A DNA stretch of 64,000 nucleotides from Caldilineae bacterium (GCA_020634625.1 JACKBJ010000010.1:47945-111944); one strand, 5' to 3'; shown: positions 21,986 to 55,849, counted from the first letter of the stretch. Numbers and translations: made by a program. Notes: generated by a model not told the origin, from the sequence alone.

Positions 21986-24187
21986 CTACTCGCGTTCGGC
22001 CGAGAGTCCCAGCCAGGGCAGGAGCAGGTCGACCCGGGCCGGCGGCTCGATGGTGAAGCTCCAGGGGTTGGGCACCGGGCCACGGCCGAGCGGGGCGCCG
22101 GCCAGGTCGGTGGCCTGGATCCGCAGCGTATAGCGCGTCCCCAGCACGAAGGGCTGGGCATGCCGCAGCGAGACGCTCTCGCCGCTGGGCGCCCAGGCCG
22201 GCTCCCAGAAGCTGGGGGGCAGGGCCGGGCTGCTGGTGACGACCAGGCTGGCCGGATCCATCGCCTCGTTGAAGCGCAGCACCAGGGTCGTGGTCGGACC
22301 CACGTCGACCGCGCCGTCGGCCGGCGTGGCGAAGACCACTTGCGGCGGCACGCTGATGACCAGCCCGGCGTGTCGCAGGTAGCGCCGCGCCTGGTCGTCC
22401 TCGATCGCGGCCTCCAGGCGCAGGGCGGCCTCGCCGAGCGCGAGGTCGACCTCGGCCTGGAACTGGATCCGGGCCGTCGCGCCCGCCTCGATCGCCCCCT
22501 GCCAGATCAGCTGGCGCGTACCCGGTGACCAGGCGCCGGCGCCGCGTCCGCCGTCGACGACCAGCGAACCGGCGACGAACTCGAGGCCGGCCGGCAGGTC
22601 GACCGCCGATTCGATCGCCAGGCCGTTCTGGGGACCACGGTTGACCAGCTCCAGGGTCACCGTCACCCGACCGCCCGGCTCGATCACATCCGGGGCGACC
22701 GCCAGGCGCGAGGGCACCAGGTCGAAGGGCGGGTCGACCGCCGGGACCCGGGCCACGAAGACCTGTTGGCGCCGGCCGGGGTTGTCACCCAGATCGGCGG
22801 TCGAGGGATAGAAGGGGTAGTCGTAGTCGAGGCTGCTGGCCAGGCCGATGTAGTCGCCGATGAAGCCGGTCTGGGCATCGACCATCGGCAGGTTGATCGA
22901 AGGGTCCCAGGTCTGGGCGCTGACGCGCAGGTTGGCGCCCCAGGTCGCACCGCCATCGTAGGATCGCACCATGTAGGTGTCGATGCACAGGTTCGCGCGA
23001 CCGACATGCGCGCGCGGGATCCAGGGCAGGTCGGGGCAGGCCAGGCGTCGATCGTGCCAGGCCAGGGCCACCCGGCCGTTCGGCGAGACCGAGACCTGGG
23101 GCTGGAACTGGTCGGCACCGCCGTCCACCGGGTCGTCGTTCATGCGCCGTGGCGCGTCCCAGCTGGCGCCGCCGTCGCTCGAACGGGCCAGCAGGATGTC
23201 GGCGTCCCCGCCACGGTAGTCGGCCCAGGCCACGAAGAGCTGGCCGCTGGTCGGGCTGACGGCGAAGGCCGGCAGCGAGGCCGGCGCGCGAAAGATCGTG
23301 TTCGGCAGCTGGAAGGGCAGGCTGACCGTCTCGGCCGCCACGGCCGGCGCGCCGAAGCTGGCGCCGCCGTCGTTCGACTTGACCCACTTGATGCTGCCGC
23401 GGGCCGCATCGCCGAAGATGGTGTCGCCATAGATCACGTAGACCGTGCCGTCCGGGCCGACGGCCGGGATGGAGCCTTGCAGGTTGCCGCGCGCCAGCTC
23501 CAAGGGTGGCCGGCTCCAGCTGGCGTTGCCGTCGCCGCTGCGGCTGAAGACGATGCGCGCCGGGTTGCCCACGTCGGTCCAGCTCATGTAGACGTTGCCG
23601 GCATGGGGGCTGGTCTCGGCCAGGTCCATGTCGCCCACGATCCACTGCTTGTCGGTGGTGGTGCTGCGGTCGACGACCGTCGGCAGGCTCCAGGCACCGT
23701 CCTTGGCCTTCTTGAGCATGTCCAAGCCGGTCGGGCCCCGGGTGAGCAGGGTGAAATAGCCGTTGCCCAGGTGGTCGAAGGTGTTGACCGGGTCGCTGGT
23801 CAGGCTGTAGGCCTCGATGCCGTCCGGCTGCGACTGGCTCCAGCTCAGGCCGCCGTCGAAGCTCTCGAAGACGCCGGTGTAGAAGCCGTAGCGCTCGGGC
23901 GTGTGAAAGAACTTGGAGCTGCCGATCAGGTGCTCGGGATCGATCGGGCTGGCGGCGAGATGCACCTCGCTGAAGTCGGTCACCGGCCGCGAGGCGCCCT
24001 GGGTCTCGCCGTCCCGGCTGACCTGGATGTTCTCGGGGATGCCGGGTCCGGCCGATTGCTGCAGGCCGGCCGGGCGCTCGGCCAGCGGCCGGAGCGGTCG
24101 CGGCGGCTCCAGCGGCGAGGCCAGCGCCACGGCGGCGCCGGCAGCCAGCAGGATCAGGGCGAGCGAAGCGGGACCGGAAGCGCGCAT
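21986..24187 (-). CDS. Secreted Asp-box (BNR/sialidase-like) beta-propeller with DUF11-like and Ig-like (Big_5-type) domains
   Basis: Five Asp-boxes (SFDGGLSW, SGDGNASW, SNDGGASF, SSDGGASW, SYDGGATW); VTVTLELVNRG; PADGAVDV..TTTLVLRFNEAMD. Confidence 0.8.
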   Translation of the reverse strand: MRASGPASLALILLAAGAAVALASPLEPPRPLRPLAERPAGLQQSAGPGIPENIQVSRDGETQGASRPVTDFSEVHLAASPIDPEHLIGSSKFFHTPERYGFYTGVFESFDGGLSWSQSQPDGIEAYSLTSDPVNTFDHLGNGYFTLLTRGPTGLDMLKKAKDGAWSLPTVVDRSTTTDKQWIVGDMDLAETSPHAGNVYMSWTDVGNPARIVFSRSGDGNASWSRPPLELARGNLQGSIPAVGPDGTVYVIYGDTIFGDAARGSIKWVKSNDGGASFGAPAVAAETVSLPFQLPNTIFRAPASLPAFAVSPTSGQLFVAWADYRGGDADILLARSSDGGASWDAPRRMNDDPVDGGADQFQPQVSVSPNGRVALAWHDRRLACPDLPWIPRAHVGRANLCIDTYMVRSYDGGATWGANLRVSAQTWDPSINLPMVDAQTGFIGDYIGLASSLDYDYPFYPSTADLGDNPGRRQQVFVARVPAVDPPFDLVPSRLAVAPDVIEPGGRVTVTLELVNRGPQNGLAIESAVDLPAGLEFVAGSLVVDGGRGAGAWSPGTRQLIWQGAIEAGATARIQFQAEVDLALGEAALRLEAAIEDDQARRYLRHAGLVISVPPQVVFATPADGAVDVGPTTTLVLRFNEAMDPASLVVTSSPALPPSFWEPAWAPSGESVSLRHAQPFVLGTRYTLRIQATDLAGAPLGRGPVPNPWSFTIEPPARVDLLLPWLGLSAERE

Positions 24188-24376
24188 GGGACATCCTCGT
24201 GGGCTGCGTGAGCCGGCGACCGGCCGGTGGGGCGAGACGGTTCGCCGGGTCGAGATCGGCCCGACCCGGGCCAGACGGGGTGGAACGGCGAAGCGATTCG
24301 CCGACCGCGGATGATCACCGCTGCCGGTTCAGAACGCAAATCGAGCCCGCGGCGTGACCGCGCGCAGCGGCGGATA

Positions 24377-24385
24377 TGCTACCAT
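24377..24385 (+). promoter_or_regulatory. Extended -10 promoter, leaderless configuration
   Basis: TGcTACCAT, then 6 nt, then ATG 24392, with no SD. Confidence 0.55.
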
Positions 24386-24391
24386 CGGGCC

Positions 24392-54141: not shown

Positions 54142-54282
54142 ACTCGCGGCCCGACGCTCCCGCGGCGCGCGATCGCGGCCTCGAGGCGCTTCGCGGCTCG
54201 ACCGAGTTCGACATCGCGGCCTCGGAAGCCGCCTGCCGCGGCACCCGAGCGCTCCGCGCGACACCCCCCGGGATCCAGACCG

Positions 54283-54885
54283 ATGCCCATCGAGATCCGA
54301 CTCGCGACGACGGAGGACGCGGCCGGCGTCGCCGAGATCTACCGGCCGGTCGTTCGGTCCACGCCGACCTCCTTCGAGCTCGAGCCACCCGACGCCGCCG
54401 AGATGGCGCGGCGCATCGCGGCGACGCTGCCCGCCTACCCCTGGCTGGTCTGCGCCAGGCGCGGTCGGGTGCTGGGCTACGCCTACGGCAGCCAGCATCG
54501 GGCGCGCCCGGCCTATCGCTGGTCCGTCGAGACCTCGGTCTACGTCCATGCCGACGCGGGCCGACAGGGGCTCGGCCGCGGCCTCTACACCGCCTTGTTC
54601 GCGATCCTGTCCGCCCAGGGCTTCCACAACGCCTATGCCGGCATCACGCTGCCGAATCCCGCCAGCGTCGCCCTGCACGCGTCGATGGGCTTCGAGCCCA
54701 TCGGCGTCTTCCGCGAGGTGGGCTTCAAGCAGGGCGCCTGGCACGACGTCGGCTGGTGGCAGCGGCCGCTGGGGTCGCCGGCAACGGATCCCGCGGCGCC
54801 CTTGGCGCTGGAGGCGCTGCTGGACGGCCCGGCCTGGCGGCAAGCCCTGAGGGCCGGGCTGCACCTGATCCACCCGGACGCGTGA
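54283..54885 (+). CDS. GNAT N-acetyltransferase, phosphinothricin/arsinothricin acetyltransferase-like
   Basis: TSFELEPP, GYAYGSQHRARPAYRWSVETSVYV, GRQGLGRGLY, ITLPNPASVALH, GFKQGAWHDVGWW. Confidence 0.9.
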   Translation: MPIEIRLATTEDAAGVAEIYRPVVRSTPTSFELEPPDAAEMARRIAATLPAYPWLVCARRGRVLGYAYGSQHRARPAYRWSVETSVYVHADAGRQGLGRGLYTALFAILSAQGFHNAYAGITLPNPASVALHASMGFEPIGVFREVGFKQGAWHDVGWWQRPLGSPATDPAAPLALEALLDGPAWRQALRAGLHLIHPDA

Positions 54886-54955
54886 CCGTCCGGCGCCGCC
54901 GGGCACCCGTCCGAAGCGCCTGAGCCAACGATCGGAGCCGGTCGGCGGCCGACGC

Positions 54956-55849
54956 TCAGCCCGCGAGCGAGGGCAGGTAGATCGTCGAGCGCCACCCGGG
55001 GCTGGGCGTCACGCTCGGCTGCGGGCTCGCGCTCGGTCCCGGCGTCGCGCGGGTCGTGGGCGTAGCGCTCGGCCCCGGCGTCGCGCGGGTCGCGGGCGTC
55101 GGGCTCGGTCCCGGCGTGGCGCTGGCCGCAGGCGTCGGGCTGGCGGCACCCGTCGGCGATGCGGTGGCTGCCGCCGGGCTCGGGATCGGACCGGTGGGCG
55201 GCGCGGGCGTGCCGGTCGGCGCGAGCGTCGGCGTCACGCTCCCGGCCTCGATCCGCGTCGCGCGCAGCCAGCCGCCGGTGCTGAAGCAGGTCACCACCGG
55301 CGGGCTCTCGCCGCAGGGGTTGGCGACGCGCTCGGAGCCGTCGAAGCCGCCCTCGAAGCCGGACCCGTCCTCCGCCACCCGCAGGCTGGCGTAGAAGAAG
55401 CGCAGGGTCGACGGGCCGGCCTGCTCCAAGCCCTCGAGCGTCAGCCGGGCCTGGCCGGCGCCGTCGCGCGTCAGGCTGCCCCGCGGGCCCTGCGCCATGC
55501 GCAGCTCGCTGCCGCGCTGCTCGATCACCCAGCGCGAGGTGAGCAGGATCGGGCTGCTGCAGCCCGGACAGCGCCGCTGCCAGCCGCGGGTGATCGACCA
55601 GACGCCCGACAGATCGGGCAGCGGCGCCGGGGTCGGCGTGACCGTCGCGGTGGCCTGCTGGAGCCGGGCCCTCGACGCCGCTGCCGGCGCCCGTCCGCCA
55701 GCGACCGCCGCCGCCTCGACGGCGCGTCCGTCGGCCTGGCGCGACGCAGCGGCCGCCCCACCGGCGACCAGCAACAGCAGGAACAGCAGCCGTCGCGGGC
55801 TGGCCGTGGCCGGCTCGAAGCGCTTCGGATCGGCGTCTCGAACGCTCAT
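54956..55849 (-). CDS. Secreted hypothetical protein with Thr/Pro tail ending IYLPSLAG
   Basis: Hydrophobic signal segment, Cys-containing beta domain (DLSGVWSIT, CPGC), ATPGPS repeats, terminal IYLPSL. Confidence 0.72.
   Translation of the reverse strand: MSVRDADPKRFEPATASPRRLLFLLLLVAGGAAAASRQADGRAVEAAAVAGGRAPAAASRARLQQATATVTPTPAPLPDLSGVWSITRGWQRRCPGCSSPILLTSRWVIEQRGSELRMAQGPRGSLTRDGAGQARLTLEGLEQAGPSTLRFFYASLRVAEDGSGFEGGFDGSERVANPCGESPPVVTCFSTGGWLRATRIEAGSVTPTLAPTGTPAPPTGPIPSPAAATASPTGAASPTPAASATPGPSPTPATRATPGPSATPTTRATPGPSASPQPSVTPSPGWRSTIYLPSLAG

Follow-up and report, generated by a model that had tools for sequence, protein, structure and literature searches.

The 64,000-nucleotide stretch of the Caldilineae bacterium assembly GCA_020634625.1 analysed here (JACKBJ010000010.1:47945-111944; hereafter the window) lies on contig C2 and has a G+C content of 72%. 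Between positions 21,986 and 55,849 it encodes four proteins, P0001 to P0004, that share a short Leu-Pro-centred peptide near one end of the chain. The original prediction had described this peptide as a (Y/F)LP-type motif of secreted proteins and a candidate envelope-sorting signal. The peptide is the YLP-box, which proved to be a real and strongly selected feature. It spans 8-9 residues, namely a hydrophobic residue, an aromatic residue, Leu, Pro, a variable residue (often hydrophobic or Arg), Leu, any residue and a basic residue.

Boxes were scored with an iterated profile trained on the C-terminal tails of this genome, with the consensus P-x-x-R-[ILV]-[YWFH]-L-P-[WMLFR]-L-x-[RKQ]. Whole proteins were scanned with the core columns of this profile at a cut-off of at least 14 bits.

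Motif-bearing proteins of the window

The genes of all four proteins, and all their features given below, lie on the minus strand, and translation placed the four motifs where they had been predicted. The N-termini of all four are hydrophobic and signal-peptide-like. P0001 (21986-24187) is an exported BNR/sialidase-like protein of 733 aa with the Pfam domains BNR_2, DUF11 and Big_5 and a C-terminal YLP-box; its N-terminus, MRASGPASLALILLAAGAAVALA, resembles a signal peptide. The box, LLLPWLGL (22004-22027), is degenerate, having Leu where the aromatic residue is expected and otherwise matching the core pattern. The tail reads ...PPARVD-LLLPWLGL-SAERE-stop, with five residues (SAERE) between box and stop. 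Against a shuffle threshold of 7.6 bits, the box reached 16.1 bits with the full profile; on the core columns it scored 12.2 bits. P0004 (54956-55849) is a 297-aa protein consisting of an N-terminal hydrophobic segment, a small domain, a Pro/Thr/Ala stalk of about 85 aa and a C-terminal YLP-box; no family was found for it in Pfam or NCBIfam. Its box, IYLPSLAG (54959-54982), is a clear copy that abuts the stop codon with 0 residues after it (...WRST-IYLPSLAG-stop), scoring 21.1 bits with the full profile and 17.0 bits on the core columns.

The other two proteins carry the motif at the opposite end. P0002 (27933-30725; longest open reading frame (ORF) 930 aa, with Met26 probably the true start by a codon-score estimate) has a signal peptide, a Cys-bracketed box, a Thr/Pro stalk of about 360 aa and a PslG-like hydrolase domain. 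P0003 (30781-33606; longest ORF 941 aa, with Met36 or Met47 the probable start) is a paralogue of equal architecture, with 51% identity to P0002 in the alignment. In P0002 the N-terminal module (30402-30521) consists of Cys69, the box LYLPSMVQR (30492-30518; context ...QSVPFC-LYLPSMVQR) and Cys108, with a loop of 38 residues, and the box is the best site of the protein at 16.0 bits (runner-up 3.0). In P0003 the module (33274-33378) consists of Cys77, a worn box, AFFPFLVQR (33349-33375), and Cys111, with a loop of 33 residues. The worn box has Phe instead of Leu in the core pattern, and its 8.9 bits are weak alone, yet it is the best site of the protein and aligns by position with the boxes of P0002 and of the homologues P0007, P0010 and P0011. 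On these two grounds it was counted as a copy, its score alone not being significant. The boxes of P0002 and P0003 begin 6 and 5 residues, respectively, past the predicted signal-peptidase site, and both have the Cys before and the RC after the motif to which the original prediction had drawn attention.

Ranked by core columns, the four predicted sites were the top sites of the window (17.0, 16.0, 12.2 and 8.9 bits), with all other window proteins at 7.9 bits or less. The motifs of P0001, P0002 and P0004 are very likely YLP-boxes, and that of P0003 is likely one as well.

A long Thr/Pro stalk had been claimed for three of the four proteins, and P0002, P0003 and P0004 have one; P0001 does not. 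The P0002 stalk (29316-30398) is rich in Thr, Pro, Ser and Ala and is encoded by imperfect tandem DNA repeats, including 4.5 copies of period 36 with 94% match at 29481-29642 (Tandem Repeats Finder). The Thr/Pro-rich P0003 stalk (32167-33264) contains 2.8 copies of period 48 with 91% match at 32246-32379. Overall, imperfect tandem repeats encoding these two stalks occupy window positions 29421-30117 and 32246-32786, so stalk length may differ among strains.

Known anchoring signals were absent from the four proteins, in agreement with the original prediction (translations, Pfam and genome scans). None had an LPXTG signal with its transmembrane segment, a PEP-CTERM signal (PEP, transmembrane helix, Arg-rich end) or an SLH domain (Pfam PF00395). 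The translations contained no transmembrane segment after any of the four boxes, and none of the four proteins had a C-terminal hydrophobic segment. The lipobox pattern [LVI][ASTVI][GAS]C was likewise not found in any of them: the first Cys contexts are VPFC in P0002 and PSHC in P0003, and in P0001 and P0004 no Cys lies close to the signal peptide.

The box across the genome and its homologues

Genome-wide counts were made on 1766 proteins predicted with a codon-likelihood gene caller from an assembly of 3.19 Mb in 34 contigs, about 65% complete; a GC3-rule caller had missed Thr/Pro-rich proteins. The original prediction had proposed a profile scan of the proteome with shuffled controls and a comparison with Thr/Pro linkers, and enrichment was found in both. 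With the full profile, 116 tails passed the 99.7% shuffle threshold, compared with 6 shuffled tails. The strict pattern [ILVFMW][YF]LP was observed in the last 30 residues of 54 tails versus 4.5 shuffled tails, with a peak 8-10 residues from the end. Core-column sites of at least 14 bits exceeded the expectation from local shuffling in the last 30 residues (94 observed, 0.6 expected), in the first 130 residues (8 observed, 1.2 expected) and in internal positions (46 observed, 5.2 expected). Within the 40 residues past the first hydrophobic segment, 10 proteins had a box versus about 0.5 in shuffles; the post-signal-peptide class is real. Thus, the predicted placement at either terminus was borne out, with both terminal classes above shuffles, and internal copies were found too. 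Back-translated DNA patterns gave 51 sites versus 0-3 for scrambled residue orders. At a threshold of at least 13 bits, which was used for the total count of carriers, about 160 of the 1766 predicted proteins (9%) had at least one box.

Across the 94 C-terminal boxes, Pro was present in 94 and Leu in 89, the aromatic position was Tyr in 49, Trp in 17, Phe in 13 and His in 7, and the basic position was Arg in 51, Gln in 10 and Lys in 10. Only Leu-Pro is fixed and there is no invariant reactive side chain, which argues against side-chain chemistry. In the C-terminal class the chain mostly stops 0-3 residues past the basic position (mode 1-2, maximum 22), and in the N-terminal class the box mostly starts about 4-9 residues past the best Ala-x-Ala-type cleavage site. 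No membrane-spanning segment followed any box among the tails listed.

That the motif is a shared tag of exported proteins was supported by the composition of the carriers. A signal-peptide-like N-terminus, called here as in all our signal-peptide counts by a crude hydrophobicity rule, was present in 60 of 94 C-terminal carriers versus 323 of 1638 other proteins (odds ratio 7.2, p = 3e-19). Carriers had a median length of 775 aa versus 387 aa and were for the most part large enzymes and adhesin-like proteins with Sec-type export. A 30-residue stretch above the proteome's 90th percentile for Pro+Thr preceded 54% of boxes, and the box often caps a Pro/Thr stalk, distant from the folded domain. 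Box genes were modestly clustered (31 adjacent pairs versus 14 expected). Three large proteins (C8:47192-51085, C8:50907-54851 and C3:17320-23616) were boxed at both ends, after the signal peptide and at the C-terminus; the two on contig C8 are adjacent, slightly overlapping calls of paralogues.

Of about 46 internal boxes, 17 lie at a linker-domain junction some 200 residues from the C-terminus, ahead of a VWA domain. This cassette, carried by 17 large exported proteins (for example C3:89288-93022, C34:16249-20148 and C5:56103-57950), consists of the box, a Cys 10 residues downstream (11 once), the VWA domain (Pfam E = 1e-20 to 5e-31) and, 1-12 residues before the end, another Cys. The two cysteines probably act as a clamp on the VWA domain, as in the A domains of von Willebrand factor. 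AlphaFold2, run on the cassette with 17 paralogues, gave the VWA domain a predicted local distance difference test (pLDDT) score above 90. The box reached about 60 and was modelled as a short helix that lies off the VWA fold and hence does not belong to it. By the 'Rosetta stone' logic of gene fusion, the VWA domain was considered as a receptor of the box, and this model, with the box at about 60 pLDDT outside the VWA fold, gave that idea no support. The cassette VWA has a DxSxS metal site, and several copies add a short tail of the form ...[FVL]W-x-x-R.

Homologues from other genomes retained the box in place. Among close homologues of P0001 (45-64% identity), 60 of 94 had a box at the same C-terminal place after a conserved PNPWSFTT, for example IYLPWLAREAERP and IYLPLVLRNHP; among distant homologues, 1 of 26 had one. 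One close homologue, P0074, has a transmembrane helix and basic tail in place of the box. Across the family (P0074, P0075, P0082 and others) the C-terminus alternates between a YLP-box, a transmembrane helix with basic tail, and another conserved domain ending ...ETSEELQVP. These alternating C-termini amount to a swap made by nature, from which their equivalence in function could be judged.

The original prediction had labelled P0002 and P0003 as GH paralogues. Neither had a Pfam match, and a profile of their family weakly matched PslG (E = 3.6e-4) and GH1, GH42 and GH5 enzymes. The AlphaFold2 model of a homologue, P0011, matched the PslG structures 5bx9 and 4zn2 (Foldseek E = 2e-21, template modelling score 0.71 on the target). 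As judged from this model, P0002 and P0003 are PslG-like (GH39-like) hydrolases, and the label was appropriate. The likeness to PslG concerns the cargo domain only: both have a TIM barrel plus beta-sandwich and a conserved ENEPD motif, whereas the identity is 16-17%, Pfam gives no match, and an N-terminal box, a Cys loop and a 360-aa stalk are added. A scan of genome contigs with P0003 returned mostly low-complexity Thr/Pro matches.

All eight N-complete hydrolase homologues have a Cys, 0-5 residues, the box and a second Cys, with 31-38 residues between the cysteines. They share four more invariant cysteines in the catalytic domain, and the loop sequence is otherwise variable. The box was the best site of the whole protein in seven of the eight and reached at least 13.5 bits in four. 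Conservation of the Cys bracket in 8/8 homologues makes the loop well supported as a conserved feature, and from the cysteine pattern the N-terminal box of the hydrolases is probably presented in a conserved, disulfide-closed loop. Thus, the predicted loop stood as a conserved Cys bracket, and its closure by a disulfide is the part that we infer. The bracket is family-specific, since most other N-terminal boxes of the genome have none. Packing of this loop on the hydrolase domain was also considered, and the model was uninformative, with residues 1-158 of P0011 below 35 pLDDT.

Two NCBIfam models, NF053834 (ultrashort_CTERM, 10 positions, cut-off 10 bits) and NF050076 (sort_motif_YLP, 11 positions, cut-off 15 bits), are both titled 'YLP-box putative sorting motif-containing protein'. 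Two sites of this genome matched them: VYLPMLRRGE-stop with 14.8 (NF053834) and 14.0 bits (NF050076), and IYLPLVLRS, an N-terminal copy, with 12.7 and 12.9 bits in the same order. Both sites clear the NF053834 cut-off and neither clears that of NF050076. The curated box, like ours, has an aromatic residue, Leu, Pro, two hydrophobic residues, any residue and a basic one, and sits at the very end of proteins that Chloroflexota export, without a transmembrane segment. Unlike it, the boxes of this lineage allow Trp or His at the aromatic position, Trp, Met or Arg after Pro and Gln at the basic position, and two of the window copies are N-terminal and Cys-bracketed. Pfam and NCBIfam scans of the four window proteins and their tails gave no motif-model match. 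Across the whole genome, NF050076 reported 8 weak sites at E up to 10, none above its cut-off, and because control genomes match too the model is unusable as a counter here. Models of 10-11 positions are short, and HMMER filters lose weak short matches. The 8 model sites compared with 116 tails found by our own profile point to a lineage dialect that mostly escapes the general models. The four window copies belong to this local, diverged dialect and fall below the reach of the two models. The basic finding is a rediscovery of a curated motif.

Similar ends had been described in the original prediction as common in Chloroflexota secreted proteins and as having no characterised receptor, and both statements were upheld. 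No paper on the YLP-box motif or on Chloroflexota sorting signals was found in the literature searched. A phylum-wide census with a back-translated DNA pattern in 251 genomes, with a control pattern built in, separated signal from control clearly in few of them: 51 versus 5 in this genome, 132 versus 26 and 79 versus 14 in others. In the remaining genomes the signal equalled the control, and in those of middling G+C the census was too noisy for the phylogenetic profiling that had been proposed. Sortase presence did not discriminate either: at least one sortase was found in 11/11 box-rich genomes and in 10/14 box-poor ones.

Candidate modes of action

Our best overall explanation, in which we place about even confidence, is that the dialect YLP-boxes are an envelope retention or sorting address, most likely docked non-covalently. 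Under this explanation the box would hold exported proteins at the cell envelope, the exposed peptide docking non-covalently into a protein reader that co-evolves with the lineage dialect. The tag could be read at either chain end or at linker junctions, and the stalk would space the enzyme from the anchor point. In the PslG-like hydrolases, the N-terminal box with its Cys bracket would then be a constrained, loop-presented form of this ligand, and proteins boxed at both ends would be bivalent tethers. Docking as the means by which the box works is a tentative proposal, short of even confidence. It is preferred because transpeptidation or proteolysis at an N-terminal box would set the enzyme loose instead of anchoring it, because doubly tagged proteins make sense as bivalent tethers, and because a dialect implies a co-evolving reader. 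We hold as tentatively that the box is the address of a new kind of surface-retention system, which would need no membrane segment and whose reader would co-evolve with the dialects.

Among known systems of non-covalent retention, SLH, CWB2 and LysM are folded domains of 40-100 residues, compared with a peptide of 8 residues here. PDZ ligands and donor-strand complementation offer the likeness of a free chain end as ligand; PDZ ligands need a terminal carboxylate, whereas the box may be followed by 0-22 residues or stand at the N-terminus.

An enzyme might instead read the box as a site of cleavage or transpeptidation: an unusual sortase or other transpeptidase would cut within or after Leu-Pro-x-Leu and link the protein covalently to the wall or a polymer. 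This we consider unlikely. The invariant Leu-Pro core does resemble the LP of LPXTG, and both are short signals of exported surface proteins that often come after wall-spanning linkers rich in Pro and Thr. NCBI curators chose the names 'sorting motif' and 'ultrashort CTERM', the short variable tails past the box look dispensable, and this genome has four sortases, as every box-rich genome tested has at least one. However, the box has no Thr-Gly, is not restricted to the C-terminus, and is not followed by a membrane-spanning segment to hold the substrate, either in the window or among the listed tails. A cut at an N-terminal box would leave no more than a few residues attached and let the enzyme go, and the sortases of 10/14 box-poor genomes further weaken the link.

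Moreover, classical substrates coexist with the box. LPTTG and LPKTG tails with a transmembrane segment and basic end are present on other proteins of the genome, and another LPKTG tail is encoded close to a sortase gene. Besides its four sortases the genome has one exosortase-family gene. It adjoins, at C15:30084-34892, the gene of a 1038-aa protein whose C-terminus consists of VPEPEEW, a hydrophobic helix and an Arg-rich tail. The sortase and exosortase systems thus have their own classical substrates, and the box is a separate signal. PEP-CTERM/exosortase, GlyGly-CTERM and PGF-CTERM resemble the box in marking many proteins per genome and in being recognised through C-terminal motif families; unlike it, they need a transmembrane helix and a basic cluster. 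The exosortase gene and its neighbour form a classical PEP-CTERM-type pair in a Chloroflexota genome.

It is improbable that the box is a site of proteolytic maturation or release at linker ends, with no anchoring, which would free the VWA cassette, trim tails or remove N-terminal leaders. Position independence would suit a protease site, and internal copies lie exactly at linker-domain junctions, 17 of them ahead of the VWA cassette. Most copies, however, are 0-3 residues from the C-terminus or about 4-9 from the mature N-terminus, where a cut would be nearly pointless, and trimming explains poorly the strong conservation of near-terminal boxes across homologues.

The box might also need no reader, acting as a mini-anchor: a peptide rich in aromatic residues and Leu, flanked by Arg or Lys, would partition by itself into the interface of the membrane or into some hydrophobic layer of the envelope. 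Its composition of aromatic, Leu and basic residues would fit, as would the tolerance of Tyr, Trp, Phe or His at the aromatic position, its use at either end, and the transmembrane anchor that substitutes for it in one homologue. This too we judge improbable. By an estimate from interfacial hydrophobicity scales, 6-7 hydrophobic residues partition weakly, which counts against such an anchor, and an invariant Pro and near-invariant Leu in fixed register indicate specific recognition, as does a lineage dialect missed by NCBIfam models. Finally, chance or compositional resemblance, for which one could cite the shortness of the motif, the 8.9 bits of the P0003 copy and the enrichment of Leu, Pro and Arg in a 72% G+C genome, is extremely improbable and, as the origin of the motif class, ruled out by local-shuffle and scrambled-pattern controls 20-150 times lower and by the conserved place of the box in homologues of other genomes.

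Several observations weigh against our best overall explanation. No reader, surface-layer partner or machine was found, no result shows docking, and AlphaFold2 gave no support for packing of the box on the domains of its own protein. The beta-strand docking put forward in the original prediction gained no direct support, as AlphaFold2 gave a low-confidence short helix, not a strand, in the VWA cassette and left the N-terminal module of the hydrolases, with its box, unmodelled (pLDDT <35). The presence of at least one sortase in all 11 box-rich genomes tested is compatible with an enzyme as reader. Even at E up to 10 the NCBIfam models miss all four window copies, so that membership rests on a genome-specific profile, and the P0003 copy (8.9 bits) scarcely exceeds the window background (7.9 bits). 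The gene and signal-peptide calls rest on crude heuristics, and the assembly is only about 65% complete.

Chloroflexota abound in soils, sediments, hot springs and wastewater sludge, and little is understood about their cell envelope. No SLH domain was found anywhere in this assembly, itself about 65% complete, and a tag on about 9% of predicted proteins is probably the main means of holding hydrolases and adhesin-like proteins at the surface. If retention by the box is true, the system would serve about one protein in ten in some Chloroflexota, and its reader, once found, would open an uncharacterised sorting route and improve the prediction of protein location across the phylum. What is new from this window is the statistical support for N-terminal placement, the Cys-bracketed N-terminal variant conserved within the PslG-like hydrolase family, the coexistence of the box with complete sortase and exosortase systems having their own substrates, and two negative results from structure prediction, on the VWA cassette and on the N-terminal module of the hydrolases.

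Neighbouring genes in the window

The four box genes are interspersed with housekeeping genes (a fused GlyRS, PPDK and an ABC-F ATPase), and the window is no dedicated YLP-box locus. Homologues with names, both of PPDK (64-66% identity) and of P0001, carry the labels Anaerolineae, Anaerolineales, Ardenticatenia or Chloroflexi, which places the bacterium in an Anaerolineae-like group of Chloroflexota, distant from any named relative. A Kelch-repeat beta-propeller protein of 1482 aa (39815-44263, minus strand) has no YLP-box (top score 6.8 bits), so not all large repeat proteins here are tagged. Convergent to P0001 and adjoining it, a protein of 526 aa that contains an F5/8 type C (discoidin, carbohydrate-binding) domain (20347-21927, plus strand) also lacks the box. 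The fused GlyRS (33619-37515, plus strand) joins the alpha and beta subunits in one frame, with Pfam tRNA-synt_2e at residues 297-573 and tRNA_synt_2f at residues 618-1162; the initial 290 or so residues of this ORF are probably an over-extended start in high-G+C DNA.

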